From positions 1 through 64,000 of IMG/VR virus record IMGVR_UViG_3300011116_000574: 64,000 bases of DNA. One strand, written 5' to 3'. This stretch comes from a virus. How positions within the stretch are numbered: the stretch's first letter is position 1; every line of letters begins with the position of its first letter. Shown in pieces: positions 7,481 through 60,696 of the stretch. The position numbers and the translations under genes were made by a program. A model generated the notes under the pieces. The model searched no databases, was not told where the DNA came from, and saw only the letters and a program-made list of their open reading frames with translations.

Positions 7481-7912
7481 ATGGCTTATCCAATTAAAAA
7501 TGGAGAAAAAAGAGTAACTTGTGCCTATGGTGTTAAAGGACCACAATGGCAATCAGGATGGCATCAAGGAATTGATCTTGGTGGACCAATTGGCGAAGAT
7601 GTTTTTGCTGTGGCAAATGGCGTTGTAGTGGGTGTTGGAATTTGGGGATCAGCTTTTGGTAAAGATGCTGTCGTCATTAAGCATAAATTCCGTGTTCGCT
7701 CATACTATTGTGTTTATGCACACATGGGAGTTCATTCTGTTAAGGCTGGAGACAAGGTTAAAATTGGTCAAAAGGTTGGCGAAATCGGAGTTGAAGGAAA
7801 TTCTGGTGGACCACACCTACATTTTGAAGCACAAAAAACACCATACTGGCAAGTTGGCGGAGGAGTAAATCCAAAGTGGATACTTTCTTATAGGTCTAGA
7901 AAGACAAAATAA
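7481..7912 (+). CDS. M23 peptidase (probable endolysin)
   Basis: HQGID, YAHM, GPHLHFE zinc motifs. Confidence 0.9.
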   Translation: MAYPIKNGEKRVTCAYGVKGPQWQSGWHQGIDLGGPIGEDVFAVANGVVVGVGIWGSAFGKDAVVIKHKFRVRSYYCVYAHMGVHSVKAGDKVKIGQKVGEIGVEGNSGGPHLHFEAQKTPYWQVGGGVNPKWILSYRSRKTK

Positions 7913-8274
7913 TGCAATTCGGACATGGGGCAAAAGATCCATTCTACATTGAATACAATGTGTCAGACGCACAGGGTATGTGGGCGGTTTGTAAAGAAAA
8001 CAATGCTCAGGTAGTTGGAGTATATTCTACAGAAGAAGAGGCTAAGGTAGCCTTAGAAGCTCTTGTAGTCCAAGTTGACAATTATGAAGAAAAAGGGGTT
8101 GAAGAAGAAGGCACCCCAGCACTTTCATTTTGGAATGGGTCTTTTGCGCCAGTATTTGGATCTTTAGATCAAGATGCCAGATACAACTCAACCTACAACG
8201 CCCCACCAAATCACGATGGTAAAAAATCTACGGGATATGGCAATAGTTCAGGCTACGGCTATAGCAACCAGTAA
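7912..8274 (+). CDS. hypothetical protein, candidate internal head protein
   Basis: Carries FWNGSF, matching the scaffold C-terminal motif. Confidence 0.6.
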   Translation: MQFGHGAKDPFYIEYNVSDAQGMWAVCKENNAQVVGVYSTEEEAKVALEALVVQVDNYEEKGVEEEGTPALSFWNGSFAPVFGSLDQDARYNSTYNAPPNHDGKKSTGYGNSSGYGYSNQ

Positions 8275-8283
8275 GGGGGAGCT

Positions 8284-8514
8284 ATGTCAAAGTTTTTGAA
8301 AAAAATTAAAAAAGCAATACATAATAACCCGACAATTATTTATGGATGGGCATCAGTTGGTGCAACATACATTGTTAAGAAATATCCAGAAATTCCAAAT
8401 GAATTAATTATATTTACATTGTTGAGTTTCTTAGGTCTTAGTCACCGAGTACAAAGAATTGAAGATAAAAAAACAGAGGAAGCCCTCTATACAGAAACCC
8501 CTAAAGGAGAATAA
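8284..8514 (+). CDS. small membrane protein, possible holin
   Basis: Two hydrophobic segments, charged termini, near the M23 gene. Confidence 0.45.
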   Translation: MSKFLKKIKKAIHNNPTIIYGWASVGATYIVKKYPEIPNELIIFTLLSFLGLSHRVQRIEDKKTEEALYTETPKGE

Positions 8515-8648
8515 TGGGAAAACATCACGACAAAATAGCGGAAGCACTAGAAATCCGCAGAAAACATACCCCAAATAAAAGCGGGTACAATACACCAGGA
8601 TCCATGAACAAGAAAAAAACTGGCTACAAAAAGCGTTCAGGCAGATAG
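8514..8648 (+). CDS. small basic protein (44 aa, not in ORF track)
   Basis: MGKHHDKIAEALEIRRK...PGSMNKKK; AAGGAG SD. Confidence 0.65.
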   Translation: MGKHHDKIAEALEIRRKHTPNKSGYNTPGSMNKKKTGYKKRSGR

Positions 8649-8665
8649 TAAGGTATAATATACAT

Positions 8666-9115
8666 ATGGATGAATTAGCTTTATTACTTAGAAAAGCCCA
8701 GGCAAATGCATTTCAGATGTATTCTCAGTCGCATGGGTACCATTGGAATGTGGTTGGTCCACATTTTAAACAATTTCACGCATTCTTTCTTGAGATTTAC
8801 GAAGATGTGTTTGACTCAGTTGACCTTTATGCAGAAATGCAGCGCAAGATTGGTAAGTATGCACCATTTGGTGCAGCAAACATGGCACTAATTTCAGATG
8901 TTCAAATTAATGACACCCTTGACCTAAAGCCATACGATATGCTACAGGAACTTTACAAAACAAATAACACTGTTTTGGAAAGCCTTACTAAACTGTTTGA
9001 CAAATCTAATGAATTGAATGAGCAGGGTATTTGCAATGATGTTGCAGCCCGCATTTCACAGCATCAATTCTGGGCATGGCAGATCAAAGCTTCATTTGAG
9101 TGGGGCTGGGGGTAA
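8666..9115 (+). CDS. dps: Dps / DNA-binding ferritin-like protein
   Basis: HWNVVG.HF.QFH..F.EIY...D..AE ferroxidase signature; leaderless after GGTATAAT. Confidence 0.88.
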   Translation: MDELALLLRKAQANAFQMYSQSHGYHWNVVGPHFKQFHAFFLEIYEDVFDSVDLYAEMQRKIGKYAPFGAANMALISDVQINDTLDLKPYDMLQELYKTNNTVLESLTKLFDKSNELNEQGICNDVAARISQHQFWAWQIKASFEWGWG

Positions 9116-9525
9116 TGAAGCCCAAAGCGATTGTTTGTGATATTCACAATACAGTCCTGATTCCCGACAAGAATGATAAGCCTATAAACAATGTCATTGA
9201 ATTCTTGAAAGAGCATGCGTCAACTCACAGAATAATTATGATGACATCTAGTCCAGAAAAAGATCGGGCAGAAGTCACAAAAGATCTCAGAGACCTTAAA
9301 ATACCTTTTGATGAAATAATTATGAATAAGTTGGAAGAAGACTCCGATGACTATAAGTATGATGCCATGAAAGACCTATTGGTTAAATATGATGTCACCC
9401 TATTTATTGATAATAAAAAAGAGAATCGTAAGGCTATTAAAAAGCTGGGAATCCGTACAAAAAAACCTGAAAACATTTCAAATAAAATATTGACAAAGAC
9501 CGTTTGGTCTGGTATATTTATATAA
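9115..9525 (+). CDS. HAD-superfamily phosphatase-like protein
   Basis: IVCDIHNT (degenerate DxD), K, FIDN motifs; ends in TVWSGIFI. Confidence 0.7.
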   Translation: MKPKAIVCDIHNTVLIPDKNDKPINNVIEFLKEHASTHRIIMMTSSPEKDRAEVTKDLRDLKIPFDEIIMNKLEEDSDDYKYDAMKDLLVKYDVTLFIDNKKENRKAIKKLGIRTKKPENISNKILTKTVWSGIFI

Positions 9526-9534
9526 TAGCAATTA

Positions 9535-9607
9535 GCCCCATTAGCTCAGCAGATAGAGCAAACGGTTTCTACCCGTTAGGTCGTGGGTGCAAATCCTACA
9601 TGGGGTA
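9535..9607 (+). tRNA. tRNA-Arg(UCU)
   Basis: GCCCCAT/ATGGGGT acceptor, AACGG-TTTCTAC-CCGTT anticodon arm. Confidence 0.9.
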
Positions 9608-9624
9608 CTAAAAGAAAGAAAAGA

Positions 9625-10047
9625 ATGTCAGAATTATCAGAAAGCATCCTGAAGCTTCGTGCCGAAGGAAAAAGTTATAATGAAATAAAAAATGAATTGG
9701 GTTGTTCTAAGGGAACAATCTCTTATTATCTTGGGGAAGATCAAAAAGAAAAAACTGGTGCTAGACGGCGGGATAATAGAAGTAAAAACCTTAGAACTTT
9801 TCATGCGTATAAAGAAGAAACTGGATGCACTGACTGTGGAGAAAAGTATCCTTATTTTGTTTTAGAGTTTGACCACAAGCCAGAATTTGAAAAAATTGAT
9901 ACTGTTTATAAAGTTTTAACCAAGTACGGAGTAGAAAAAGCTTGGGAAGAGATTGCCAAATGTGATGTGGTTTGTGCTAATTGTCACAAAATAAGGACAT
10001 ATATGCGTAAACCTTTTGGTGAAGGACCCTTGACTTTATTCAAATAA
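9625..10047 (+). CDS. HTH-HNH endonuclease
   Basis: N-terminal HTH (GKSYNEIKNELGCSKGTISYY), CTDCG...FDH...CANCHKIRT. Confidence 0.88.
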   Translation: MSELSESILKLRAEGKSYNEIKNELGCSKGTISYYLGEDQKEKTGARRRDNRSKNLRTFHAYKEETGCTDCGEKYPYFVLEFDHKPEFEKIDTVYKVLTKYGVEKAWEEIAKCDVVCANCHKIRTYMRKPFGEGPLTLFK

Positions 10048-10065
10048 AATAGTAAACTAGAAGTA

Positions 10066-10527
10066 ATGCGATTCAAAACCAAAGTCTTGATTCCCGTTAT
10101 TGCGCTTCTTGCGAGTTTACTCGTATCGCTACCAATAGCCCAGAATCAAGCTAACGCTAATGAAAGACAGAGCAGGTGTAAAGTTTCGGCTTCACGAAGT
10201 TATACTAGGGTTCCATATGCGACCCCAACATATAACAAAAGATTTGCACTCGCATACATGTCCAATAAGTATGGATGGTGCGGGCAGCAATTTACCTGTT
10301 TAACAACATTGTGGAACAGAGAAAGTGGTTGGAGAGTAAATGCTCACAATCCATCTGGTGCACACGGAATACCACAAGCATTGCCAGGATCTAAAATGGC
10401 AAAATTTGGAAAGAAATGGAGAACCGACCCACAGGTTCAAATTAAGTGGGGACTACATTATATCAAGAATAGATATGGGAGTCCCTGCAACGCCTTGGGT
10501 CACTCTTATAATTTCGGCTGGTATTAA
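10066..10527 (+). CDS. secreted lytic transglycosylase (SLT/Rpf-like)
   Basis: Signal peptide; LWNRESGW, GAHGIPQALP, YIKNRYGSPC actinobacterial SLT motifs. Confidence 0.88.
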   Translation: MRFKTKVLIPVIALLASLLVSLPIAQNQANANERQSRCKVSASRSYTRVPYATPTYNKRFALAYMSNKYGWCGQQFTCLTTLWNRESGWRVNAHNPSGAHGIPQALPGSKMAKFGKKWRTDPQVQIKWGLHYIKNRYGSPCNALGHSYNFGWY

Positions 10528-10533
10528 AAATAA

Positions 10534-10597
10534 GACGGTATGGTGTTGTAATTAGCATCCTTCGGAGAGTCTGGGTTAAAATCCCAGCCATACCGTC
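10534..10597 (+). ncRNA. tRNA-like RNA lacking a normal anticodon arm
   Basis: 10-bp stem GACGGTATGG/CCATACCGTC, D-like hairpin, mini hairpin TCCTTCGGA, T-like arm CTGGG-TTAAAAT-CCCAG. Confidence 0.55.
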
Positions 10598-10601
10598 ATA
10601 A

Positions 10602-10673
10602 TCTTCCTTAGCTCAACGGCAGAGCATGCGACTGTTAATCGCAGGGTTCTTGGTTCGAATCCAAGAGGGAGAG
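10602..10673 (+). tRNA. tRNA-Asn(GUU)
   Basis: Canonical cloverleaf, TGCGA-CTGTTAA-TCGCA. Confidence 0.95.
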
Positions 10674-10753
10674 CAAGCAATATGTATTTAATCGGTTGTA
10701 CATATTCCCACACGATGTAATGGCGTGGCAAGCCGACCTATATTAAGGAAAAA

Positions 10754-10909
10754 ATGAAAGAGATCATACTGTCAACATTAACGGGTGCTGCCTGTGGCGT
10801 TGTATTTGCACTACTAAAACTTCCAGTTCCAGCCCCACCAGTTTTATCTGGAGTAATGGGAATTGTTGGGTTGTGGATTGGTTATACATTAATTCACGGA
10901 GGAGGATAG
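10754..10909 (+). CDS. XapX-domain (DUF1427) small membrane protein (not in ORF track)
   Basis: MKEIILSTLTGAACGVVFALLKLPVPAPPVLSGVMGIVGLWIGY; PAPP signature. Confidence 0.8.
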   Translation: MKEIILSTLTGAACGVVFALLKLPVPAPPVLSGVMGIVGLWIGYTLIHGGG

Positions 10910-10912
10910 GTT

Positions 10913-11011
10913 ATGATAAAACGATTTGTAATGGGAATTGTTGGGACAGTTGGTCTAGCATTCATACTCTCTGCATTTAAGCATGAGGATAAAAATAAAA
11001 AATCTGAATAA
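10913..11011 (+). CDS. 32-aa single-pass membrane peptide (not in ORF track)
   Basis: MIKRFVMGIVGTVGLAFILSAFK...; GGAGGA SD; shares GTAATGGGAATTGTTGGG with the XapX gene. Confidence 0.5.
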   Translation: MIKRFVMGIVGTVGLAFILSAFKHEDKNKKSE

Positions 11012-11017
11012 AAAAAT

Positions 11018-11089
11018 GCCTCTTTAGCTCAGTGGTAGAGCATCGCTCTTGTAAAGCGAGGGTCATCCGTTCAAATCGGATAAGAGGCT
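11018..11089 (+). tRNA. tRNA-Thr(UGU)
   Basis: Cloverleaf, TCGCT-CTTGTAA-AGCGA. Confidence 0.95.
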
Positions 11090-11093
11090 CTAA

Positions 11094-11170
11094 ACAGATA
11101 TAGCTCAGCTGGTTAGAGCACCAAACTGATAATTTGGGGGTCGGTAGTTCAAGTCTACCTATCTGTACCA
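11094..11170 (+). tRNA. tRNA-Ile(GAU)
   Basis: Cloverleaf, CCAAA-CTGATAA-TTTGG, encoded CCA. Confidence 0.95.
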
Positions 11171-11247
11171 GAATCTTTTTATTACAAGGTTCTTTGTTGC
11201 GTAATAATTATATAAATTGTATAATGTTATAGATAAAAAGGATAAAA

Positions 11248-11835
11248 ATGAATTCAAAAATTCTAGGTGATTTATTTATAAAGCATGGTAGTGATAAGTC
11301 AGACCCACATAATTATGAAGAAACATATGCAAAAATTCTTCCAGATAATTTAAACAATTTATTAGAAATTGGTATTTCAAATACCGATGCAGATCATTCA
11401 TCTTTGCATGCTTGGTCAGAAATTTATCCAGATGCAAAAATTTGGGGTGCGGATATTGTATTTGAAAAGTTAATTAATAAAGATAATATTTCTAGTTACT
11501 TATTAGATCAATCATCAGCAGAATCATTAGACAACTTTAAACTATTTTTAAACAATAAGTTTGATGTTATTATTGATGATGGATCCCATGTGTTTGCACA
11601 TGCCAAGCTAACCGTTGAGAAACTTTTTGATTGTTTAAAGGAAGACGGCATTTATTGTATTGAAGATATTGCCAAAGGACCTCTTTGGTATTGTGAGCAA
11701 ACGGTAAAGCAATGGACAGATTATTTAGACACCCGCACAGATATAAGATATGATGTTTATGACAGTAGAGAAGACTTGGGTGCGGAAGATGACAGCGTTA
11801 TTATTACCATTAGAAAGATTAAAAATGAATTATGA
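11248..11835 (+). CDS. class I SAM-dependent (sugar O-)methyltransferase
   Basis: LLEIGI, GADI, DVIIDDGSH, YCIED motifs. Confidence 0.85.
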   Translation: MNSKILGDLFIKHGSDKSDPHNYEETYAKILPDNLNNLLEIGISNTDADHSSLHAWSEIYPDAKIWGADIVFEKLINKDNISSYLLDQSSAESLDNFKLFLNNKFDVIIDDGSHVFAHAKLTVEKLFDCLKEDGIYCIEDIAKGPLWYCEQTVKQWTDYLDTRTDIRYDVYDSREDLGAEDDSVIITIRKIKNEL

Positions 11836-18791: not shown

Positions 18792-18928
18792 AAAACTGGA
18801 TAGATCCAGATGATGAAATAATTCGGGGCAGAAGAAAAAAGGTTGAGGCAAAGCCTAGACCTAAAAAAGCTAATCATAAGCATGAATACATAGATAATTC
18901 ATGCACTAAATGTGGTAAAATTAAATAA
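18788..18928 (+). CDS. small basic Cys/His protein (not in ORF track)
   Basis: MKNWID...KKANHKHEY...CTKCGK; ends directly at tmRNA 5' end. Confidence 0.55.
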   Translation: MKNWIDPDDEIIRGRRKKVEAKPRPKKANHKHEYIDNSCTKCGKIK

Positions 18929-19170
18929 GGGGATGCTTAGTTTCGACTATGTGCAGACTTTTATACAGAAGTAAAACAAACTAAAAATAAACGGCGTATC
19001 TCAAAATACCCTCGCTTTAGCTGCATAAACTAAAGCCGTGTGACGACTACATGGGAACAGAAAGTCGTACAAAACAATAAAAATTAAATAAAAATGCTAG
19101 ACAATATTACTTAAATACTGTATACTAGAAAACATATAGGACAGGGGTGCAATTCCCCTCATCTCCACAA
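18929..19170 (+). ncRNA. ssrA: tmRNA
   Basis: GGGGATG/CATCTCC-A acceptor with G3:U70, TTCGAC near 5' end, T-arm AGGGG-TGCAATT-CCCCT, tag reading GVSQNTLALAA*. Confidence 0.9.
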
Positions 19171-20433: not shown

Positions 20434-20844
20434 ATGAAAAGCGTAGTAATCGTAGATATTGATGGCACAGTTGCCACAAGAACAAACAGAGATCCATTTG
20501 ATTATTCTAAAGTACTTGATGATGCCCCAAAGCCAGATGTAATTGAAGTTGTTGCTTCTTTATGGCGAGCGGGTCACAGGATTATTTTTGTTACCGCTAG
20601 GGATGACTCTTGCTTTAATGATACATTTAAATGGTTAACATTAAATTGTCCACCATTTATTAAATTGTATATGCGTAAGACAGGCGACACCAGATCGGAT
20701 GGAGTAATAAAGCGTGAAATTTACGAGAATTTAATTAAGCCAGAATACAGTGTTTTGTGCGTACTTGACGATAGACAGCGTGTTGTGGATATGTGGAGAT
20801 CAATTGGGCTTACCTGTTTACAGGTAGATTATGGAAATTTTTAA
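20434..20844 (+). CDS. polynucleotide 3'-phosphatase (PseT C-terminal-like HAD)
   Basis: DIDGT, VTAR, LYMRKTGDTRSD..IK, DDR..VVDMWR. Confidence 0.88.
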   Translation: MKSVVIVDIDGTVATRTNRDPFDYSKVLDDAPKPDVIEVVASLWRAGHRIIFVTARDDSCFNDTFKWLTLNCPPFIKLYMRKTGDTRSDGVIKREIYENLIKPEYSVLCVLDDRQRVVDMWRSIGLTCLQVDYGNF

Positions 20845-21303: not shown

Positions 21304-22422
21304 ATGGCAGACAAAGGACATAAACCAACAAGCGGAATGAAATCCGCAGCAAGAAGAGCACTCGCATGGCACAAGGATGGCAAGCGTGGTGGTACTTCTG
21401 TTGGTTACGCCAGAGCAAATCAAATTGTAAACGGAGAATCTTTGTCCGATGATACCGTCAAGAGGATGTACTCTTTTTTCTCACGCCATGAGGTAGACAA
21501 AAAAGCCACAGGATTTAATTCTGGAGAAGAGGGCTACCCAAGTCCAGGCAGAGTTGCTTGGGACTTATGGGGCGGAGATGCAGGGTTTGCTTTTGCCCGA
21601 TCCAAAGTAAAGCACACAATCAAGAAAGAAATTATGGAGATGTTTGAAAAAACAATCGGAAATAATTCCAGCAAAGCGCATGACCCGATTGAAGAACCTG
21701 GTCATGTAGAATATTATGCAAAAGGAGGTGACAAGATAGATATGTCAGGAGAAGATAAAACAACAACAGAACCCGATCCAAAGGGTGATATTGCGGTAAC
21801 AAAGGCTGTGGACTCAGATCTGGCTCGCAGAAAGATTACAAAGGCAATTAAGTCTTTGGAGAAGGCTCTTAAGGGTCTACCAAATGTTGGTAGAGCATCG
21901 GATGTTTCCGTAGATAACGAAACATCACCTGTTGCAAAAGCAGCAGATCCAGATGTAAGCCGAGCAGATTCAGTTGATGTTTCAAACGAAACATCACCTG
22001 TAGCAAAGAATGTCGGAAATCCAGATGATGTTAAGGGCGATGGAGAATACTCTAAGCCAGCAAACGAACCAGTTAGCACAGACGCAGAACCTATGACTAA
22101 GGGAGCATGCTGTGAAGATTGTGGAGATGATTGCACATCAGAAAAGACTTGCTGCACAAAGTGCATGAAGATGGAGAAGGAATACGCATCGGCACCAGCA
22201 CCATCAGCAGCTTCTAGTACAGCACCAGTTACAGCATCAGTAGATGATTTGGAAAAGGCTGCAGATACAGATAAAGATGGCGATACAGAATCAGACACAG
22301 ATGAAGATGATGATGATAAGCCTGTTTACAAGTCTGCACAGGAATTAGTAGATGAAGCAAAGATCAACAAGAGCGTATGGGGTGGCGCATTTGCTGCACC
22401 AGCAGCTCCAAGAATCCAGTAG
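21304..22422 (+). CDS. candidate internal head protein with repeated hydrophobic-x-K-A/S sites
   Basis: Globular N-domain (RMYSFFSRH...AWDLWGG), internal NETSPVAK repeat, Cys cluster, C-terminal SVWGGAF. Confidence 0.65.
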   Translation: MADKGHKPTSGMKSAARRALAWHKDGKRGGTSVGYARANQIVNGESLSDDTVKRMYSFFSRHEVDKKATGFNSGEEGYPSPGRVAWDLWGGDAGFAFARSKVKHTIKKEIMEMFEKTIGNNSSKAHDPIEEPGHVEYYAKGGDKIDMSGEDKTTTEPDPKGDIAVTKAVDSDLARRKITKAIKSLEKALKGLPNVGRASDVSVDNETSPVAKAADPDVSRADSVDVSNETSPVAKNVGNPDDVKGDGEYSKPANEPVSTDAEPMTKGACCEDCGDDCTSEKTCCTKCMKMEKEYASAPAPSAASSTAPVTASVDDLEKAADTDKDGDTESDTDEDDDDKPVYKSAQELVDEAKINKSVWGGAFAAPAAPRIQ

Positions 22423-23150: not shown

Positions 23151-23471
23151 ATGTCTGAAATTATTGATGCATTGGGAATGATGCCAGAAGATGTTCGTTG
23201 GTATCATCTTGCTGCGTGTAGAAATATGCATGTAAACAATTTTTATGATTTCTATGAAAATGATCAGAGACTTGCCATGCAGATTGATGAAATGTGCATG
23301 GTTTGCCCTGTAGCACAACAGTGCTACGCAGAGGGAGTAAGAAATAAAGAGAAAGGTGTATGGGGCGGGATCTTTATGGATCTTGGTAGAGTTGATAAAC
23401 AAAACAATACCCATAAAACACTTGAAGTATGGAAGAGATTAAAGAAAATTCATGGAAGAAATAGTTTTTAA
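23151..23471 (+). CDS. whiB: WhiB-family transcription factor
   Basis: W..AAC...C..CPV..QC...GVWGG. Confidence 0.88.
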   Translation: MSEIIDALGMMPEDVRWYHLAACRNMHVNNFYDFYENDQRLAMQIDEMCMVCPVAQQCYAEGVRNKEKGVWGGIFMDLGRVDKQNNTHKTLEVWKRLKKIHGRNSF

Positions 23472-47871: not shown

Positions 47872-48843
47872 ATGAAGGTTTCTTTTACGGGTGCTCCCGA
47901 ACATATGTATGTAGCTCTAGGCTATGGTAACGCATCTTGGCATATTTTTCAAAGTATGAAGAAATTAGGTTTAGATCCCGTGGTTCGGGATAAAGAAGCA
48001 AAGGTTGGTATTTCTTTCTGTCAACCCGCTCATTATTCCTTCGGCGAAAATCAATATAAAATTGGTTATACACCTTGGGAGTCTACAGAATTTCTTCCTA
48101 ATTGGCAAGAGGGCTTAGAATTAGCAGATGAAATTTGGACTACATCGCATTGGAATAAGAAAATCTTTGAAGCTAAGTTAGATAAAGAAGTATTTGTCTA
48201 CTTGCATGGTATAGACAAAGAGTTTATGCCTATGAAGCGTAAATGGGATAGATCAGAGCCATTTACCTTCTTACATATTGGCGAGCCATTTAATCGTAAA
48301 GATGGTCAACTTGTTGTAGATGTATTTGCAAGGCTCTATGGCAACGACCCCCGCTACCGCCTGATTATGAAATGTACAAAGTCAAACATGCTAAGTCTGA
48401 TGAATATGCCACCAAATCTAGTTTGCAACAACATTATCATCAGAAATGATGTTATTTCTCGTGAAGAACTCATCGACCTATACGCATCTGTTCAATGCTT
48501 TGTATATCCATCTTGGGGAGAAGGTTTTGGATTTAATCCACTTCAGGCACTAGCTATGGGTATTCCAACTATTTGTACCGCAGAGTGGGCGGAGTACAAA
48601 GATAGAATTACACTACCTCTTGACTCTGAATCCGCATGGTCTCCTTGGCAAGAAGTTCACCCTGGATATATGGTAAAACCTAGTGCAGAACAACTTGCTC
48701 AACATATGGTAGAGGTTGTAGAAAACTATGATAAATATTGTGCAGTAGCATTTAAGAACTCTGTAAAAGTTCATAGAGAATATGACTGGGATCTTGTTAC
48801 AAGACCCGCTGCAGGTAGATTAAAAAAAATTATAAAAAACTAG
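47872..48843 (+). CDS. glycosyltransferase family 4
   Basis: YTPWES, FLHIG...RK, FVYPSWGEGFG..PLQALAMGIP. Confidence 0.9.
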   Translation: MKVSFTGAPEHMYVALGYGNASWHIFQSMKKLGLDPVVRDKEAKVGISFCQPAHYSFGENQYKIGYTPWESTEFLPNWQEGLELADEIWTTSHWNKKIFEAKLDKEVFVYLHGIDKEFMPMKRKWDRSEPFTFLHIGEPFNRKDGQLVVDVFARLYGNDPRYRLIMKCTKSNMLSLMNMPPNLVCNNIIIRNDVISREELIDLYASVQCFVYPSWGEGFGFNPLQALAMGIPTICTAEWAEYKDRITLPLDSESAWSPWQEVHPGYMVKPSAEQLAQHMVEVVENYDKYCAVAFKNSVKVHREYDWDLVTRPAAGRLKKIIKN

Positions 48844-48907
48844 ATTTTAGAAAAAAATAATGTTACACTAGAAACCTAATCAAAAAAATGAAAAGGTGTG
48901 TGTATAC

Positions 48908-50836
48908 ATGAGCGGGATAGAAAATCCTTATGAAAACTTTATTGCGCTTAGCCGTTATGCTCGTTGGCTAAGCGAAGAAAATAGACGAGAAACTTGGTCA
49001 GAGACCGTAGATAGATATTTTGATTATATTCAAAAACATCTAAAGGACAAGCATGGCTATGTGCCAGATGAAAAGCTTGTTGCCGAATTAAAACAATTTG
49101 TATTCGATAGAAATGTAATGCCTAGCATGCGTTCAGTTATGACCGCAGGTACTGCGTTGGAAAGAGATAATGTTGCAGGATATAATTGCTCTTTTCTTCC
49201 TGTCGACTCACTTCGTTCATTCGATGAAGCAATGTATATTCTTATGTGTGGAACAGGGGTAGGTTTCTCAGTAGAGAGTATGTATGTGAATAAGCTTCCA
49301 GTAATTGCAGAGTCATTCGAAAAGACCGACACAATTATTGTTGTAGAAGATTCAAAGGCGGGCTGGTCAAAAGCACTGCGTGAACTTATTGCATTACTAT
49401 ATCAGGGTCAGATTCCTGCAATTGATGTTTCTAAGGTCCGACCTGCTGGTGCAAGACTAAAAACTTTTGGTGGTCGTGCATCTGGTCCTCAGCCATTAAT
49501 TAATCTTTTTGATTTTACTATCAAAACATTTAAGCATGCTGCTGGTCGTAAACTAAAGCCTATTGAAGCGCATGATGTCATGTGTAAGATCGGCGAGGTA
49601 GTTGTAGTCGGTGGTGTACGCCGTAGTGCTATGATTTCTCTTTCCGACCTCAGCGATCACGATATGGCAACGGCAAAAACAGGTGCTTGGTGGGAGAATC
49701 ATCCACAAAGAGCATTGTCTAACAACTCAGTTGCATTTGCTGGAAAGCCAGAAATGAATGACTTTATTGCAGAATGGAAATCTGTTTATGACTCTAAGTC
49801 TGGTGAGCGTGGTATTTACAATGTAAAAGCTGCACAAACACAAGCAGCAAATTTTGGTCGCAGAGATTCAGAAATTCATTATGGAACTAATCCCTGCTCC
49901 GAAATCATTCTTAGACCATATCAGTTCTGTAATCTTTCAGAAGTTGTACTTCGTGAAGAAGACACAGTTGAGCATATTGCTCGTAAAGTAGAGTTGGCAA
50001 CTATTCTTGGAACTTGGCAGTCAACCCTAACAGACTTTAAGTACTTGCGTAAAATTTGGAAAGATAATACAGAGGAAGAGCGTTTACTTGGAGTTTCACT
50101 TACTGGTCAGTTTGGTCATAAGTATATGTCTGGTCAACAGGGGCTTGAAAAGCTCGCTAACACCCTTGACTTTCTTAGAGAACTTGCAGTAACAACAAAT
50201 GTTGAAGAGGCTGGCAAAATTGGAATTAATCCATCTGCAGCAATTACCTGCGTAAAGCCATCTGGAACTGTATCTCAGCTAGTTGGAGTTTCATCTGGCA
50301 TGCATCCTTGGCACAGCGATTACTATATTCGCACTGTTCGTGGAGATAAAAAAGATCCACTAACTCAATTCCTAAAAGATTCTGGAATTCCCGCCGAAGA
50401 TGATTTTATGAAGCCAAATGACACTACTGTTTTTTCATTCCCAATGAAAGCACCTAAAAATGCTATTAAGCGTAATGATCTTACAGCAATTGAACATTTA
50501 AATGTTTGGCTTACATACCAAAGACACTGGTGTGAGCATAAGCCATCAATTACAGTTTCTATTCGTGAAGACGAATGGATGGAAGTTGGTGCTTGGGTAT
50601 ACAAGCACTTTGATGAATTATCTGGAGTTTCGTTCCTGCCATATTCTGAACACACCTATGTACAAGCACCTTATCAGGATGCTACAAAAGAAGAGTATGA
50701 TGCTTTTGTAAAGAAAATGCCAAAGCATATTGCTTGGGAAAATCTTTCCCTTTACGAAACAGAAGATAATACTACTGGTTCTCAATCACTTGCCTGTACA
50801 AGTGGAGAATGTGAATTGGTAGATATTGGGGCATAA
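48908..50836 (+). CDS. nrdJ: class II (B12-dependent) ribonucleotide reductase
   Basis: YNCSF, GGVRRSA, GTNPCSEI, TCVKPSGT, C-terminal ACTSGECE. Confidence 0.93.
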   Translation: MSGIENPYENFIALSRYARWLSEENRRETWSETVDRYFDYIQKHLKDKHGYVPDEKLVAELKQFVFDRNVMPSMRSVMTAGTALERDNVAGYNCSFLPVDSLRSFDEAMYILMCGTGVGFSVESMYVNKLPVIAESFEKTDTIIVVEDSKAGWSKALRELIALLYQGQIPAIDVSKVRPAGARLKTFGGRASGPQPLINLFDFTIKTFKHAAGRKLKPIEAHDVMCKIGEVVVVGGVRRSAMISLSDLSDHDMATAKTGAWWENHPQRALSNNSVAFAGKPEMNDFIAEWKSVYDSKSGERGIYNVKAAQTQAANFGRRDSEIHYGTNPCSEIILRPYQFCNLSEVVLREEDTVEHIARKVELATILGTWQSTLTDFKYLRKIWKDNTEEERLLGVSLTGQFGHKYMSGQQGLEKLANTLDFLRELAVTTNVEEAGKIGINPSAAITCVKPSGTVSQLVGVSSGMHPWHSDYYIRTVRGDKKDPLTQFLKDSGIPAEDDFMKPNDTTVFSFPMKAPKNAIKRNDLTAIEHLNVWLTYQRHWCEHKPSITVSIREDEWMEVGAWVYKHFDELSGVSFLPYSEHTYVQAPYQDATKEEYDAFVKKMPKHIAWENLSLYETEDNTTGSQSLACTSGECELVDIGA

Positions 50837-50850
50837 CTAATGCTTCATTA

Positions 50851-50876
50851 AGACCCCGCCTTTTGGCGGGGTCTTT
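50851..50876 (+). terminator. intrinsic terminator
   Basis: AGACCCCGCC-TTTT-GGCGGGGTCT-TT. Confidence 0.85.
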
Positions 50877-50933
50877 GTATTTCTACCTTAAAGTGGTATA
50901 ATTTTGTTATAAATCTTATGGAATGGTCGTGGC

Positions 50934-53939: not shown

Positions 53940-53982
53940 TGACTGGCTTTAATAAAAATCAAGAAAAGGTATAATAGATAGT

Positions 53983-56900
53983 ATGTCATATGATTTACAA
54001 GTACTAAGAGATAATCCAATTGGTTATTGGTCATTCAATAATACCAATAAGGATATTACTAGATATGCTAATACGGCTACTGTTAGTGGGTCTTATACAA
54101 CCCCGCCGATTATTGCAAATGGCGGATATTCGCTAAAAGTAAATAGTTCTACTACTGCTACTATAACTAACACTGCTGGTAAATATGAATGCTTTTCCAA
54201 TAACTATCAAAATAGAACCTTTACGATTGCTTTTTGGCTTAGCCTTAATAACCAATTAAATGGTTCTGGTGCTGGAACTTATACAAACGATCAACTTACC
54301 CTACTATCAATTAAAAACGGTGCCACAGTAATTGGTAAAATTGTATACGATTATAAGTCGAATACGGTTAGGTATACTTTTCCAGGAACAAATAACAAAG
54401 ATTCTTATGCGGTCATTGATGATTTTGACAAGCAATATTACATAGTTGCAACATATTCTAATGGAAGTCATTCTATAAAAATTAATGGTAGAAATGGGTT
54501 TATTGGTTTGGTTAGCGATTTTTCAAATATGACATCAGCAACAAAAAGCAATATCTCCTTTGTCATTGCTGATACAAGTACCACATCAAACTTTCTTACA
54601 AATAGTTTAGCTTTTTACGACTATCAAATTTCAGATGAGCAAATAAAAAGACATATTCTTTGGGCAGGAAATGATGAAAAACCAAACTTTCAAGGCTCAA
54701 TTTCTGCAAGCACATCCATCTTTACATTCTTAGAAGAAAATCAAGATTTAGGTTATGCAAAAACTATTTCTGGTCAAGATTTCCTAATATTGGGAGAGTT
54801 GGATAAATTAAATGTGACGGATTCTGGATTAACTCCATTAAAGTTAGACACCCCAACATTTAATACCAACTACGATAGTACCGCATCCTATACAATAAAT
54901 AGTTCTTCTGGAATAAATTGGTCGGGATCTGCGGGAGTAGACATTAATTTCTTTCCAAATTATTTTAATATGACAACTGGATTTACTTTATATATGACAG
55001 TAAATAGAACTTCTACTGGAAGTTATAACGAATATTTATTTGGACTATCAAATGTAAACGGACAAAGCATGTTCCTTGAGTATAATGTTCCAGATGGAAA
55101 TACAAACTATTATTTAAAAATGTATGATTCTTATACTGGCTCTACCACAACCATTGTTAGTCTAGCTAGTGGTCAATCAGCATCTACCGCAAAAATTTCA
55201 AATGTTGCCGTACAATTTTCTGGAAGCCTAATTAATCTTTACACATCTGACAATTCTGGAGTAACAGCATCGTCTACATCTGGTTTACCCCTTAATATGA
55301 ATCAGAATTCAATATTAACCTTGGGAAATAGTTATAATTCTCCAAAAAATTTATATTCTTATATAGAAGATTTTGGGGTAACAGATCAGTATTTTGCTAG
55401 TGTTACATCAATCCCCTTTGGCAGTGTTTCTAACTTTATCATGCCATTAACAGCATCAGCTAGTCCATTTCTTATTAAACAAAGAGGAACCTGGATACAT
55501 CAAGTACCATCCGTAGTTATACCTTTTTATAATTTTTACGGAACCGTTTTTGACTGGAAAACAATGGATAACTGTCAGGTTCTTTACTCTGTTGATAATG
55601 GAAGCACCTACAACATTGTAAATAGGCATCAAACTGCAAGTTTATATAATACGCTTGGTGTTGCGGGTAATATTGCAGTAAAAGTTCAAATTGATACAGA
55701 CTATGTGTTAGATCAAAAAAATCAATCCTTTAATAATTTTTATTACAATGTTTATGGTCCGATGAGTTTAATTTCTGATAATGAAATGTATACTCTGTCA
55801 TCATCAACATCTAGCGTTAGCCCAAACCTAAGAATATCTAATGGAACTAATAATATTTTAGCAAGACAAAAAAACTTTGGCGTTAAATTTGGAGGAGAGT
55901 TGCCAACAAATGCTCTTATTACTGTTCCAACATCATCTTCTTATTCCGCCATTGAAATGTGGTATAGACCAGATTTTATTCCAACTCAAACATTAAGAAC
56001 AAATATCATTAAAAATCCATCTTTTGAAGTTACCCCAACTGCGAGTATGTTTATAACTTATAATACAAATTATCCAGTAAGCACATCAACAGCATCCCCA
56101 CTATTTAGAACTAGAAGCGTAACTCAAAATACAGGAACATTCCTAAATGCACAGATTAGAATTGGTTTTCATAGAACTAACTCAGTAGCCCTTCCAATAT
56201 ATTATTCTTGTGATCCTGGTCAAGCATATACTTTTTCTTTCTATATGTCAGACATATTAATGCCATCTCCATCTATTACTGCAAGAATAAGATTTTATAA
56301 TTCTGCTGCATCAGCAACAGTTCTTTCAACAACAACTTCAACTAGCACTATATCAACAGCATCTTACACAAGGGTTTCTGTGACCGCAACTGCACCCACA
56401 TCTATAACAGCGTCTTTAAACGGAAATTTAATATTTCCAGACTTTTTTTGTCCTACAAACACTACATCAAGTTATAGTGGTGGTAGATTCCAGGCAGATG
56501 GAATTTTATTAGAGGCAAGTCCAGCACTAAATGAATATTTTGACGGTTCGTTTACAGGTGCTTCTTGGTCGGGAACTGCAGACATTTCATCATCAAGCTT
56601 GCTATACGCCAGTCCAGTTCATATAATAAATAATACAATAGATCAAAAAATTAGCTCTAGTTCTATTGCAACCGCCCCAGCTATATACATAGATAATTTG
56701 GGTAAATTTAGATCTTTGGGTGGAACCTTATATATAAACGGTGCATCCGTAGTTGACGGGTCATATTCTGCTAGTCAAAATGAGCTGTATCATTTAACTT
56801 TGGTTTTATCATCACCAACATCATCGGCTTTGTATTTAAATGGTGGTAATTTAGTAATGAACTCTACAAGAAGTAAAGGTACATATGGATATCTACAATT

Positions 56901-57048
56901 TTGGAATAGTACCCCAACTGCAGCAGATATTTTAGATAGATATTCCCAGTTTGTTGGTAAAACAATAGTGTCAATTACCGACACAAATACAACTAAATTA
57001 TACTCTGCCTTGTCGCCAGAATTATATATTATCACCAGTCTTGGCTAA
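53983..57048 (+). CDS. large virion protein with LamG/concanavalin-like and carbohydrate-binding modules
   Basis: VLRDNPIGYW start, N.IKNPSFE, EYFDGS motifs. Confidence 0.7.
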   Translation: MSYDLQVLRDNPIGYWSFNNTNKDITRYANTATVSGSYTTPPIIANGGYSLKVNSSTTATITNTAGKYECFSNNYQNRTFTIAFWLSLNNQLNGSGAGTYTNDQLTLLSIKNGATVIGKIVYDYKSNTVRYTFPGTNNKDSYAVIDDFDKQYYIVATYSNGSHSIKINGRNGFIGLVSDFSNMTSATKSNISFVIADTSTTSNFLTNSLAFYDYQISDEQIKRHILWAGNDEKPNFQGSISASTSIFTFLEENQDLGYAKTISGQDFLILGELDKLNVTDSGLTPLKLDTPTFNTNYDSTASYTINSSSGINWSGSAGVDINFFPNYFNMTTGFTLYMTVNRTSTGSYNEYLFGLSNVNGQSMFLEYNVPDGNTNYYLKMYDSYTGSTTTIVSLASGQSASTAKISNVAVQFSGSLINLYTSDNSGVTASSTSGLPLNMNQNSILTLGNSYNSPKNLYSYIEDFGVTDQYFASVTSIPFGSVSNFIMPLTASASPFLIKQRGTWIHQVPSVVIPFYNFYGTVFDWKTMDNCQVLYSVDNGSTYNIVNRHQTASLYNTLGVAGNIAVKVQIDTDYVLDQKNQSFNNFYYNVYGPMSLISDNEMYTLSSSTSSVSPNLRISNGTNNILARQKNFGVKFGGELPTNALITVPTSSSYSAIEMWYRPDFIPTQTLRTNIIKNPSFEVTPTASMFITYNTNYPVSTSTASPLFRTRSVTQNTGTFLNAQIRIGFHRTNSVALPIYYSCDPGQAYTFSFYMSDILMPSPSITARIRFYNSAASATVLSTTTSTSTISTASYTRVSVTATAPTSITASLNGNLIFPDFFCPTNTTSSYSGGRFQADGILLEASPALNEYFDGSFTGASWSGTADISSSSLLYASPVHIINNTIDQKISSSSIATAPAIYIDNLGKFRSLGGTLYINGASVVDGSYSASQNELYHLTLVLSSPTSSALYLNGGNLVMNSTRSKGTYGYLQFWNSTPTAADILDRYSQFVGKTIVSITDTNTTKLYSALSPELYIITSLG

Positions 57049-57098
57049 TATATGTCACTAAATTTCGTTTTCATAAGTAAAAATGGTAAAATCTATTT

Positions 57099-57437
57099 AT
57101 GGGAAGAATGAATATAACAGAAGTAGAAGAAGTTTCTTATGGACTTTATCTCTGGGAAACTCCAGATGGCAAGTTGTTAATGGATGAAGACGGAAACTAT
57201 CTTAATGTTGCTGCTATAAAGGGCGACATATCTAGAATCAATAGTATTAAGCAGGTAGCAAAATCTTTAGGTATAGAAGGTCAACCAGTATGGTTTTCTG
57301 GTCATAGAAGAGTGACCGAGGAAGAATATGAATACCAGAAGCAGAGAATGGATTTGGGTCTTATTCCAGATGAATTAGATGTTCCTGCAATCAAAGAGGA
57401 TATTGAACAAAAGAGAAAGATGGGTCTTTACAAATAA
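57099..57437 (+). CDS. conserved hypothetical protein upstream of portal
   Basis: Leaderless after GGTAAAAT; coupled to portal. Confidence 0.7.
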   Translation: MGRMNITEVEEVSYGLYLWETPDGKLLMDEDGNYLNVAAIKGDISRINSIKQVAKSLGIEGQPVWFSGHRRVTEEEYEYQKQRMDLGLIPDELDVPAIKEDIEQKRKMGLYK

Positions 57438-59023
57438 TGGCTAATTTAACACCAATGGATGATGATGACTTTGACTTCAGTCAAACAATCAATATTGTTT
57501 CCGATAGAGATCGTGTTGCAAAATCTCAAGAATCAGAATATGATGACCCATTTGCAAAAAGCTGGGATGACTTAAAAAAGATTGATGGTCTTAGTGAAAA
57601 CTTTAAGCGTAGAGCAAATAGACTAGAAAAGTCATTTACTGGTATTGATGATGCAAAGTCAAAGAAACTAGACCCACTTGACCTAACAGGATACTCTCTG
57701 TTTATGATTGTTCAGCCACCATACAATGTAATGTATTTGGCTCAACTTTTTGACCTTTCCCCATTTCATCATGCTGCAGTTGAAGCAAAGGTAGCAAATG
57801 TTATTGGTCTTGGTTATGAATTTCAAGAGACACAAAAAACTTTAGATAAGGTTGCCGATGTAATGGACAACCCCGCAAGACTTGATAAAATTCGTAGAAA
57901 TATTGCTCGTGGGCGGGTAGAGTTAAAAAATTATCTAGAAGATATGAACTCTGATGACGGCTTCCTTGAGACACTAAAAAAGGCATATACAGACTTAGAA
58001 GTTACTGGAAATGCCTATATTGAAATTGGTAGAACATCATCTGGAAAGATTGGATATATTGGTCATATCCCTGCCATTACAATGCGTATTCGCCGTCATC
58101 GTGATGGCTTTGTTCAGGTTGTTTATAACCGCTATACATTCTTTAGAAATTATGGAGACACGACAACAGAAGACCAAATTGGCACAGACCCAAGACCAAA
58201 TGAAGTAATTCATTTAAAGAAGTACTCACCAACAAATACTTATTATGGAATTCCAGATATTATGTCTGCAAAAAATGCTGTGGCGGGTGACGAATTTGCT
58301 CAAAGATTTAACCTTGACTATTTTGAAAACAAAGCTGTTCCAAGATACATTATTACCGTAAAGGGTGCTCGCCTTAATGCAGAGTCAGAAAGAAAACTTT
58401 TAGAATTTTTCCAGACAGGTCTAAAAGGTCGTAATCATAGAACCCTTTATATCCCACTTCCTTCAGATGGAGAGAACGCTCGTGTAGAATTTAACATGGA
58501 GCCAATTGAAGCAGGTATTCAAGATTCTTCATTTACAAACTACGCCGTTGAAAGTCGTGACCGTATTCTTTTGGCGCACCGAGTTCCAATTAGCAAATTG
58601 GGAACACCGCAGGGAACATCTTTAGCAGGTGCAAGAGATGCAGATAAAACCTTTAAAGAGCAGGTATGTCGCCCGATGCAAGACTATATTGAAAAGAAAC
58701 TAAGTGGAGTAATTGCCGAAATCACAGACGCATTTACTATACAACTAAACGAACTTACCCTTACTGATGAAGAGACACAGGCAAGAATTGATGATGTTTA
58801 TCTTAAAGATCAAGTTATTGTCCCTAATGATGTTAGACTTCGCAAGGGAATGCCACCTAGAGCGGGTGGTGACGATCCTCTAGTAATTGGTGCGAAAGAT
58901 GCAGCAGAAGCCACAGCACAAGCTAATGGAACAAGACAAAGGGATCAGAAAAGAAAAATAAATGCTCCCGATACTCAGGGCGAGGCTCGCAGTCCAAAAG
59001 GTCAGGGAAGAACACAGGAGTAA
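57437..59023 (+). CDS. portal protein
   Basis: TGNAYIE, EVIHLK, YYGIPD, YFENKAVP, HRVP, NDVR motifs. Confidence 0.92.
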   Translation: MANLTPMDDDDFDFSQTINIVSDRDRVAKSQESEYDDPFAKSWDDLKKIDGLSENFKRRANRLEKSFTGIDDAKSKKLDPLDLTGYSLFMIVQPPYNVMYLAQLFDLSPFHHAAVEAKVANVIGLGYEFQETQKTLDKVADVMDNPARLDKIRRNIARGRVELKNYLEDMNSDDGFLETLKKAYTDLEVTGNAYIEIGRTSSGKIGYIGHIPAITMRIRRHRDGFVQVVYNRYTFFRNYGDTTTEDQIGTDPRPNEVIHLKKYSPTNTYYGIPDIMSAKNAVAGDEFAQRFNLDYFENKAVPRYIITVKGARLNAESERKLLEFFQTGLKGRNHRTLYIPLPSDGENARVEFNMEPIEAGIQDSSFTNYAVESRDRILLAHRVPISKLGTPQGTSLAGARDADKTFKEQVCRPMQDYIEKKLSGVIAEITDAFTIQLNELTLTDEETQARIDDVYLKDQVIVPNDVRLRKGMPPRAGGDDPLVIGAKDAAEATAQANGTRQRDQKRKINAPDTQGEARSPKGQGRTQE

Positions 59024-59076
59024 TATGATACCGTAAATTTTGTATTGCATACAAAACTTGGTATCATTTAAGTAAT

Positions 59077-60696
59077 ATGAATATTCAAAAAGCCACATGG
59101 CAAAATGGAGATCGCAAGATGAGTCTTGCATTCCCATTTGCTAAAGTAGATAAAGAAAATCGCACAGTATCTGGCTTTGCTACATTGGATAATGTAGACA
59201 AGCATGGTGATATTGTTACTTCAGATGCAAGTAAAGCTGCATTTGAAAGATTTCGCGGAAACATTCGTGAAATGCATCAACCAATTGCGGTAGGTAAAAT
59301 CCTTTCTTTTAACGAAGAAGATTACTACGATGCTAATGAAGGTAAAAATTACAAAGGTGTATTTGTACAAGCATATATTTCAAAGGGTGCTCAGGATACT
59401 TGGGAAAAGGTTCTAGATGGCACCCTTACAGGTTTTTCAATAGGCGGAAATATTGTCACAGCCTCTATGGAAAAGGGTGACGATGAGGCAGACGAAGAGC
59501 GTAGAGTTATTAAAGAGTATGACCTACACGAATTAAGTCTAGTTGACAATCCCGCAAACCCACTTGCAAATGTTTTTTCAATTCAAAAGAGTGGTGATAG
59601 TTTAATTTTTAAAGGAATGGCAACAGAAATTGAAACAGAAAATGTCTTCTGGTGCGGAACAGACCAGGTTGCTACAGCTTATTCGGGTGAGACAAAGGAC
59701 TGCAGCATTTGCGGTGACACGATGGACACCATTGGCTGGGTTGAAAAAAGCGATACAGAAAAGAATCTATCTATTCAAAAAGTAATCAATGGTTACTTTA
59801 AGAAAGACGATGCTCCAGGTTCAGTACATGGTCCAAATGGAACACTAGATTCAAGTTCAACACCACTTAATCCCGTTATTGATTCAGAGGAAACAATTAA
59901 CTTGTATCCAGATCAGAACAACATTAGTACAACAAAGGCTGCTGTTGGAGTTGGAAGTTTTGTTACATGGAAATCTAGCGGTGGAAAAGCATATGGTAAA
60001 ATTATAAGTATTAAATCAAAAGGAACAATTAAGGTTCCAGATAGCTCGTTTGAGATCACAGCAGAAAAGGATGATCCAGCAGCACTAATTAGAATTTATG
60101 AGAAAACAGCCGATGGTTTCAAAGAAACCGACAAAAAGGTTGGTCATAAAGTAAGTACCCTTAAGCCAGCAAAAGGCTCAAAGGCTAAAAATAAAATCAG
60201 CAAAGGAGGTAGTATCGTGACAGAAGAAAATCTAGAAACTCAGGAAGCTGAAGAAATTAATGAAGTAGTTGAAGAAAGTGATGATGCAGCAATTGAGAAG
60301 GCTGCAGATGTTTCGGAAATAGAAGTCGATGAATTAGACTTTACTAAGATGGTTACAGACCTCAAAGACTTTGTTGGTGAAAAGCTTGAGAAGAGCGCAG
60401 AAAGCGCAAAAGATAGCACAACAGAATTTAAGAAAGCTCTAGAAGCAGAAACATCAGGTTTGATAAAGAAATTTGATGAACTTTCTGCTGAAAAAAATGA
60501 GCTGGCTAAATCTATTGATGCTCTAAATAACCTTGTTACAGAACTACAAAAGTCTCTTACAGAGACAAACGAAAGGGTCGCATCTTATGAGAGCGACACC
60601 GCAATTAAAAAGTCTGGTGAAGTTGACAAAACAACATCAGTAACAAGAGAAGATAAATTTTGGCAAGGATCCTTCCTCGGAGTAAATGCCCTATAA
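59077..60696 (+). CDS. prohead protease-scaffold fusion
   Basis: IREMH, LTGFSIGG, ELSLVDNPAN protease motifs; acidic coiled-coil C-terminus. Confidence 0.9.
   Translation: MNIQKATWQNGDRKMSLAFPFAKVDKENRTVSGFATLDNVDKHGDIVTSDASKAAFERFRGNIREMHQPIAVGKILSFNEEDYYDANEGKNYKGVFVQAYISKGAQDTWEKVLDGTLTGFSIGGNIVTASMEKGDDEADEERRVIKEYDLHELSLVDNPANPLANVFSIQKSGDSLIFKGMATEIETENVFWCGTDQVATAYSGETKDCSICGDTMDTIGWVEKSDTEKNLSIQKVINGYFKKDDAPGSVHGPNGTLDSSSTPLNPVIDSEETINLYPDQNNISTTKAAVGVGSFVTWKSSGGKAYGKIISIKSKGTIKVPDSSFEITAEKDDPAALIRIYEKTADGFKETDKKVGHKVSTLKPAKGSKAKNKISKGGSIVTEENLETQEAEEINEVVEESDDAAIEKAADVSEIEVDELDFTKMVTDLKDFVGEKLEKSAESAKDSTTEFKKALEAETSGLIKKFDELSAEKNELAKSIDALNNLVTELQKSLTETNERVASYESDTAIKKSGEVDKTTSVTREDKFWQGSFLGVNAL
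60217..60696 (+). CDS. nested in-frame scaffold protein (159 aa)
   Basis: Strong SD AAAGGAGGT 6 nt before an in-frame GTG at the start of the acidic coiled-coil. Confidence 0.7.
   Translation: MTEENLETQEAEEINEVVEESDDAAIEKAADVSEIEVDELDFTKMVTDLKDFVGEKLEKSAESAKDSTTEFKKALEAETSGLIKKFDELSAEKNELAKSIDALNNLVTELQKSLTETNERVASYESDTAIKKSGEVDKTTSVTREDKFWQGSFLGVNAL

Follow-up and report, generated by a model that had tools for sequence, protein, structure and literature searches.

In a viral contig of 100,657 bp (IMG/VR record IMGVR_UViG_3300011116_000574), the first 64,000 nucleotides of which are referred to as the window, the prohead protease-scaffold protein P0001 ends in a short peptide which recurs in three further proteins of the same phage, P0002, P0003, and P0004. 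The consensus studied here, K-[S/T]-Φ-W-x-G-x-F, where Φ denotes a hydrophobic residue, spans eight residues with W, G, and F as anchors. The motif is almost certainly real and under selection, and its reality can be regarded as settled because it is conserved in orthologs. By analogy with other phages and their satellites, the favored interpretation is that the peptide acts as a mimic of the scaffold tail which would address proteins to the prohead interior via the coat protein (rough probability 0.55). While we infer the coat protein as the partner and encapsidation of the tagged proteins, their delivery into the host appears doubtful. Judging from its genes, the source would be an uncultured actinophage, probably from fresh water, with the WhiB gene and the named relatives pointing to actinobacteria.

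All four copies of the motif listed in a preliminary description of this DNA are present where they were reported. In P0001, F-W-Q-G-S-F (60658-60675, + strand) is followed by L-G-V-N-A-L and the stop, and therefore lies six residues from the end. The P0002 copy, V-W-G-G-A-F (22375-22392, + strand), lies nine residues before the stop and the P0003 copy, V-W-S-G-I-F (9502-9519, + strand), one residue before it, so that three of the four copies are found within nine residues of a stop. The fourth copy, F-W-N-G-S-F in P0004 (8128-8145, + strand), is followed by A-P and lies 42 residues before the stop. Scanned in all six frames, the complete genome of 100,657 bp contains W-x-G-x-F five times, each time in a + strand gene. 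The fifth occurrence, G-V-W-G-G-I-F (23358-23375, + strand), belongs to a WhiB protein (23151-23471; Pfam Whib PF02467, E 3e-10) and stands outside the system. It was excluded as a tag, given that the identical string occurs in the WhiB genes of relatives; GVWGG, an instance of G-[V/I]-W-G-G, is the WhiB family's own turn. The string Q-P-W-C-G-S-F in the CHAP domain of relatives was likewise excluded.

W-x-G-x-F is found within the last 15 amino acids (aa) of three proteins, as opposed to 0.06 expected from shuffled proteins, and none of 5000 shuffles reached three. After correction for all 70 three-residue patterns of the scaffold tail, the within-genome p is ~0.04, and taken alone this statistic is suggestive only. 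When the first 84 related loci were scanned in six frames, no stray W-x-G-x-F appeared outside the families described here. In five related records, the corresponding DNA pattern gave 25 matches on the gene-bearing strand, compared with 0-4 per record on either strand for the reversed control. The possibility raised in the preliminary description, that the motif might lack conservation in orthologs and be no more frequent than chance, is thus not borne out, since it is conserved in orthologs and enriched near stops.

P0001 (59077-60696, + strand), previously called simply the scaffold, does carry the motif at its end but is more precisely a fusion of an S78 prohead protease with a scaffold part of acidic/coiled-coil character, in which aa 283-362 form a Tudor-like (DUF2945) insert (Pfam Peptidase_S78, Hva1_TUDOR). 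Its matches to the S78 profiles PF04586 (31.3 bits, cut-off 21) and PF14550 (26.7 bits, cut-off 24) exceed the respective cut-offs, and the head maturation protease family phrog_9427 is matched with an E of 4e-117. The scaffold ends in Φ-W-x-G-x-F-L plus 5-8 residues in all complete orthologs among the related loci L001-L036, corresponding to more than 30 relatives and 16 distinct DNA rows. The motif is also found in the scaffolds of the Streptomyces phages Blueeyedbeauty and LukeCage, which have a guanine-cytosine (GC) content of 70%, and in the scaffold of Rhodococcus phage Peregrin F replaces W (F-x-G-x-F). Because two scaffolds end in the form seen in the candidate cargo proteins, namely K-G-L-W-G-G-A-F in L143 and K-K-S-L-W-G-G-R-F in L033, the scaffold and cargo versions of the motif can be considered one class.

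Several additional features surround the scaffold tail. Its F and L codons (60670-60678) always read TTC CTC in the 16 orthologous DNA rows, in an AT-rich genome, which suggests a constraint at the nucleotide level besides the one at the protein level. A reading of positions 60630-60740 gave no convincing pairing of the invariant TTC CTC with the ribosome-binding site of the capsid gene. About 20 aa upstream of the tag (window ~60595-60620) lies a conserved site, [S/T]-A-[I/F/M]-K-K-S-[G/I]-[E/D], which lake phages share with phages of Streptomyces and Rhodococcus (L038, which is Blueeyedbeauty gp28, L258, and L259). K-K-S is also found directly ahead of many tags, and on sequence grounds both elements may be candidate sites of protease cleavage for release or maturation. 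Furthermore, a candidate nested scaffold open reading frame (ORF) with the same tagged C-terminus (60217-60696, + strand) starts at an in-frame GTG at 60217 after AAAGGAGGT. By analogy with lambda C/Nu3, the precedent for a nested scaffold, this start would yield a free scaffold with the same tail.

P0002 (21304-22422, + strand) consists of a helical N-domain (phrog_2859), a conserved TEPDPKG segment, a Cys-rich segment, an acidic linker, and the tag, as assigned from the sequence and a PHROG match. The tail K-S-Φ-W-G-G-A-F is kept in the P0002 orthologs of L037 and L129 as well as in P0002-like proteins of the related genomes G002-G004 and G008-G010, and the L037 ortholog retains it even though its best segment is only 39% identical. 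The N-domain (21304-21660) is confidently predicted as a five-helix domain, with a mean predicted local distance difference test (pLDDT) score of 85.7. A Foldseek comparison with the PDB gave no match at E ≤ 0.001, the best VIA-align Z of 5.2 lying within helical-bundle noise, and the ESM Atlas returned viral hypothetical clusters only. According to the predicted structure, this domain, which is widespread in phage head modules, could represent a new fold family.

P0004 (7912-8274, + strand) combines a small N-domain, which has a weak Pfam match to DUF7336, with a conserved C-terminal module containing the motif. Its copy had been counted as a C-terminal tag; it is instead internal and always located 42-43 residues from the stop. 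Across 42 orthologous loci, with identities as low as 31%, the sequence F-W-[N/S]-G-S-F-A-P hardly varies. In 34 distinct DNA rows, none of G, S, F, A, and P is ever replaced, and yet each is encoded by two to four synonymous codons; this synonymous codon turnover therefore indicates selection at the protein level. The module of 42 aa which follows the motif (8146-8271, aa 79-120) is rich in Gly, Asn, and Ser, contains S-T-Y-N-x-P-P, D-G-K, and G-Y-G-N, ends in S-N-Q, and is likewise conserved down to 31% identity.

P0002 and P0004 had been described as unrelated, which does not hold, since their domains are fused in one ORF or encoded by adjacent genes in relatives. In L063 and L067, a P0002 N-domain is followed by a K-E-I-W-x-G-A-F copy and the P0004 ortholog is the adjoining gene. 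In L082 and L086, a single ORF contains the P0004 N-domain, the P0002 N-domain, the motif, the Cys-rich segment, and finally a second motif with the P0004 tail. The two proteins are therefore better regarded as members of one modular family.

The spread of the motif was assessed by scanning IMG/VR for K-x-Φ-W-G-G-A-F, which yielded at least 111 contigs. Counting ORFs of at least 100 aa among the matches listed, 48 of 58 in-frame matches lie no more than 17 residues from the stop, as opposed to 4.8 expected. The search across related phage proteins suggested in the preliminary description thus revealed C-terminal enrichment, tenfold near stops among these matches. Most of the tagged proteins listed have a common core made up of the T-E-P-D-P-K-G segment, the Cys-rich segment, and the acidic linker, while the N-modules ahead of the tail differ: a helical domain of the P0002 type (RMYSFFSRH-type), a P-D-G-S-F-P-I type, a Tudor-like module, or none at all. 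A separate family in relatives, which contains DUF5872, has the same ending. Pfam assigns to the tagged relatives only domains of unknown function (DUF5872, Hva1_TUDOR, and, weakly, DUF7440). No protease gene was found in the contigs encoding the DUF5872 type, which are 18-59% complete, so that co-occurrence cannot be judged there.

Several lines of evidence connect the tagged proteins to the phage head. In tblastn searches, the P0002 N-domain has matches located in genes of other phages, including those of Roseobacter, Synechococcus, and haloarchaea, whose annotation is major capsid protein, portal, prohead protease, or head morphogenesis. In the one case checked, that of Actinomycetia phage DSL-LC01, the N-domain lies within a 604-aa protein adjoining the head-protease gene. 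The Tudor-like (Hva1_TUDOR/DUF2945) cassette of P0001 (59923-60162, aa 283-362) is missing in most orthologs, which have a length of ~460 aa. The same cassette is found in the P0002 ortholog of L129 (1647-3035, - strand), with ~60% identity over the core and 35% identity over 206 columns (E 6e-22). Modules therefore move between the two tagged proteins. In addition, a motif-ended scaffold and a tagged protein occur together in six genomes, namely that of the window, G002, G003, and the complete genomes G008, G009, and G010. The proposal of a portable, head-linked tag is partly supported in that the motif is short and linear, lies near the C-terminus behind swapped modules, and co-occurs with a scaffold copy.

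P0003 (9115-9525, + strand; its start ATG at 9115 is placed as in homologs) is a small HAD phosphatase which belongs to the PNKP type and bears a conserved tail of 22 aa. Compared with the family of P0211, a canonical PNKP-type phosphatase paralog without the long tail (20434-20844, + strand; phrog_505, E 1e-52), it reaches an hhalign probability of 98.9% (E 1.7e-17), with the alignment extending only to aa 114. A PDB profile match identifies Pnkp1 (4xrp, E 1.8e-4), and the Pfam matches alone are below cut-off. The end L-T-K-x-Φ-W-[S/N]-G-x-F-I is present in 54 of 56 homologs, down to 46% identity, the exceptions being one protein with N for G and one that is truncated. Across 34 aligned homologs, W131 and F135 are invariant and G133 is at least 90% conserved, and within the protein conservation is highest over the final 22 residues (0.89 vs. 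0.65 for the body). In an AlphaFold2 model based on the 34-row alignment, the core is confident, whereas aa 121-136 show pLDDT values of 45-53 and no secondary structure. A tail which is conserved and yet predicted to be disordered would be the signature of a partner-binding peptide. When a complex of the P0003 tail (aa 97-136) and the coat protein was predicted from a 62-row alignment of the latter, the score was 0.00 (mark 0.32), an outcome which weighs on neither side as regards binding.

Motif I of P0003 (9136-9150, aa 8-12) reads D-I-H-N-T, corresponding to D-[I/V]-H-N-T in the clade of the window and D-x-D-x-T in distant homologs. Replacement of the general acid/base Asp by His may mean that the phosphatase is altered or inactive in this clade, with the tail retained. 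The neighboring Dps-like protein (8666-9115) ends in F-E-W-G-W-G, which was rejected as a tag as it is not conserved in orthologs. Regarding the enzymes or anti-defense factors initially envisaged as cargo, one tagged enzyme, P0003, was identified and nothing points to anti-defense.

The presumed binding partner, the major capsid protein (60727-61911, + strand; Pfam Phage_capsid), has an HK97 fold without a delta domain. It is encoded in a head module with the order portal, P0001, and capsid, flanked by a head-tail adaptor gene and with a tape measure gene downstream. From residue 1, it shows 54% identity to the capsid proteins of Streptomyces BE-cluster phages (Stanwilliamsviridae). The motif is read as a coat-binding or at least prohead-binding end because scaffold C-termini hold the coat in studied phages and the protein CpmB, discussed below in connection with phage 80alpha, copies that end. 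According to the proposed mechanism, the ancestral motif would be the extreme C-terminal end of the protease-scaffold protein in this actinophage lineage, as suggested by its spread, and by analogy with other tailed phages the scaffold tail would hold the HK97-fold coat protein at its inner face. Copies of the peptide would have been acquired, within the freshwater branch, by the modular P0002/P0004 family, by the DUF5872 family in relatives, and probably by P0003, and the tagged proteins would enter the procapsid together with the scaffold. Later, they might be expelled or cut like the scaffold, or else retained and ejected. The acidic linkers speak in favor of at least part of the tagged proteins being removed in the manner of a scaffold. 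A loading system resembling that of encapsulins, in which a peptide derived from the coat-binding tail of the scaffold loads exchangeable proteins including an enzyme for delivery with the DNA, is put forward only tentatively and seems unlikely.

A number of observations weigh against the proposed address signal or parts of it. The P0004 copy lies 42-43 aa from the end and the fused relatives hold two copies, so that a free C-terminus is not required, unlike for the hook of 80alpha. Instead of being injected as cargo, the acidic P0002 and P0004 proteins may serve as accessory components of the scaffold or core, and the long acidic linkers of the P0002-type proteins fit scaffold-like proteins which leave the head better than retained cargo. 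Blueeyedbeauty has the scaffold motif and no clear tagged proteins; its gp206 and gp236 contain W-x-G-x-F near the C-terminus and have no similarity to the tagged families. P0003 is the sole enzyme among the tagged proteins, and part of its match could be inherited, as the canonical PNKP phosphatase family itself ends in G-x-F. Finally, the codons for W-S-G-I-F-I in P0003 show no synonymous change among near relatives and overlap a good sigma-70-type promoter. This promoter-like sequence, TTGACA-N17-TGgTATATT (9490-9518, + strand; TTGACA at 9490-9495, 17 nucleotides, and TGgTATATT at 9510-9518), lies inside the tail codons upstream of a transfer RNA (tRNA) gene for tRNA-Arg (9535-9608), which bears out the overlap already cautioned about in the preliminary description. 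An additional DNA-level constraint on these codons is therefore possible.

The last points lead to an alternative which we regard as unlikely, according to which true sharing is limited to the scaffold and the P0002/P0004 superfamily, the latter being accessory scaffold or core proteins removed at maturation, and the match in P0003 is coincidental. It draws on the long acidic, scaffold-like linkers of P0002 and P0004 as pieces of one family, on the G-x-F end which is invariant in canonical PNKP phosphatases (G134 and F136 in 28 P0211 homologs), and on the promoter overlap with its synonymously unchanged W-S-G-I-F-I codons. P0003, however, has six of the eight residues of the extended consensus (K, T, V, W, G, and F), and its K, T, and V codons do vary synonymously. 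Distant homologs moreover alter the residues that would encode the -10 box and still keep W, G, and F (WSGTF, WSGKF, and WNGIF). The tail of P0003 is also 13 aa longer than the canonical PNKP phosphatase end, is left unaligned by hhalign, and is predicted to be disordered, all of which argues against this alternative.

A second alternative retains the entry into the prohead and replaces the partner: instead of the coat, the motif would bind the portal, the scaffold core, or, as a signal for substrate docking or cleavage, the protease domain. All of the head-linked evidence fits this explanation equally well. K-K-S, just before W and in the [S/T]-A-x-K-K-S site ~20 aa upstream, would provide possible protease sites, the internal P0004 copy indicates that a free C-terminus is not needed, and the targeting sequence of phage T4 is thought to act through the scaffold core. 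Conversely, nothing in the data is specific to the portal, and solved systems show the extreme C-terminus of the scaffold on the coat protein, as in 80alpha (PMC5644958). A partner other than the coat is considered rather improbable. Contact between scaffold and coat is not confined to one system, as the helix-turn-helix of the P22 scaffold contacts the coat protein as well.

It is also conceivable that the partner of the motif is a factor of the host or phage which has no connection with head entry, such as a chaperone, a degron adaptor, or a secretion component, and that the scaffold uses the same factor. Conserved, disordered, near-terminal peptides are the general form of degrons and adaptor-binding tails, and actinobacterial substrates of type VII secretion are known to carry a W-x-G motif. 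Scaffold proteins are, however, not secreted, and the WXG100 motif sits in a helical hairpin of ~100-aa proteins rather than in a tail. In addition, the tagged families have domains in common with head proteases and scaffolds, and the motif is kept in phages of Streptomyces and Rhodococcus as well as in this phage with a GC content of 37%, rendering such a factor highly improbable. Chance resemblance or a by-product of DNA signals is already refuted: although the pattern-corrected p is only ~0.04 for the bare three-residue pattern in one genome and one of five copies (WhiB) is indeed unrelated, the motif is conserved in orthologs with synonymous codon turnover and across very different GC contents, is tenfold enriched near stops among the IMG/VR matches listed, and has no stray counterpart in the first 84 related loci.

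The window, with a GC content of 33-43%, contains six tRNA genes and one transfer-messenger RNA (tmRNA) gene, and the closest relatives of its genome are metagenome contigs in IMG/VR. The tmRNA gene (18929-19168) encodes a tag peptide ending in ALAA, and an annotated tmRNA is also found in Streptomyces phage Blueeyedbeauty. Directly upstream of the portal module lies an ORF of 1021 aa (53983-57048), which matches phrog_11584 (unknown function) weakly and over its first 290 aa only. Glycosyltransferase and ribonucleotide reductase genes (47872-50836) directly precede the head module, and their order matches that of Blueeyedbeauty genes 20-22. A conserved cluster (7481-9525) comprises the genes for an M23 peptidase (7481-7912), P0004, a 76-aa ORF, the Dps-like protein (phrog_3636), P0003, and tRNA-Arg, and P0004, the Dps-like gene, and P0003 are found together again in related contigs. 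The GTATAAT sequences taken to be late-type promoters do lie upstream of three operons encoding motif proteins (7428, 8653, and 20998). They do not mark late genes, as they precede many other + strand operons, structural and non-structural alike (24 in the window vs. 14.9 expected). GTATAAT is therefore a general promoter here and was rejected as evidence.

Among known systems, the closest parallel to the scaffold-tail mimic proposed here is found in phage 80alpha and the satellite SaPI1. The 80alpha scaffolding protein and SaPI1 CpmB have a common C-terminal RIIK ("helix-and-hook") and the same mode of coat binding (PMC5644958). Similarly, the present motif is located at the extreme C-terminus of the scaffold and repeated near the C-terminus of non-homologous proteins (P0002-type, DUF5872-type, and P0003). 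The tails described here contain W-x-G-x-F instead of RIIK, so that the system would work like the 80alpha scaffolding protein/CpmB type while standing outside that sequence family. In 80alpha, furthermore, the mimic belongs to a satellite and alters capsid size, whereas here the phage itself bears several tagged families, known from sequence and including one with an internal copy. As for the scaffold protease, the HK97 prohead protease gp4 reportedly has a C-terminal capsid-targeting signal, a finding ascribed to Duda, Oh and Hendrix in 2013. P0001 is likewise an S78-type protease whose C-terminal end is the motif; in HK97, by contrast, the scaffold is not a separate protein, and further tagged proteins are not known.

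In phages T4 and P1, a short portable peptide, the capsid targeting sequence of IPI-III and Alt and the signal of DarB, respectively, loads varied proteins which are later injected (PMC9024508). These signals are N-terminal, and that of T4, a leader of ~10 aa, is directed at the scaffold core and clipped off by gp21. In all families described here, the motif occupies a C-terminal or internal position and repeats the tail of the scaffold itself.

Encapsulin cargo peptides are C-terminal, follow a flexible linker, and dock enzymes inside an HK97-fold shell. P0003 alone resembles this arrangement, with a predicted disordered C-terminal tail (aa 121-136) on an enzyme core. The consensus differs from that of encapsulins, only one tagged enzyme is present, and the shell is a genuine phage capsid, complete with portal, protease, and scaffold. 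In herpesviruses, the assemblin protease and the scaffold form a fusion or nested pair whose last ~25 aa attach to the major capsid protein until cleavage just upstream sets them free. The conserved [S/T]-A-x-K-K-S candidate site ~20 aa upstream of the tag recalls this arrangement; the herpesvirus tail is, however, not known to load other proteins. A full-text search of the literature collection used here for five motif pentapeptides found no relevant paper, and a search on capsid targeting and cargo-loading peptides retrieved only the known systems.

How HK97-type proheads take in proteins besides their scaffold and protease is known for few model phages, where entry relies on N-terminal signals or satellite mimics. 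The motif described here provides a candidate signal of eight residues which is defined by sequence, has many natural fusion partners, and is present as a scaffold copy in cultured Streptomyces phages, and the question is therefore testable. If the proposed role is true, the signal would help to annotate head-internal proteins in uncultured actinophage genomes and offer a tag ready for use in filling HK97-fold capsids with chosen proteins. It would also constitute a natural bridge, at the level of sequence, between phage scaffolding and encapsulin cargo loading.

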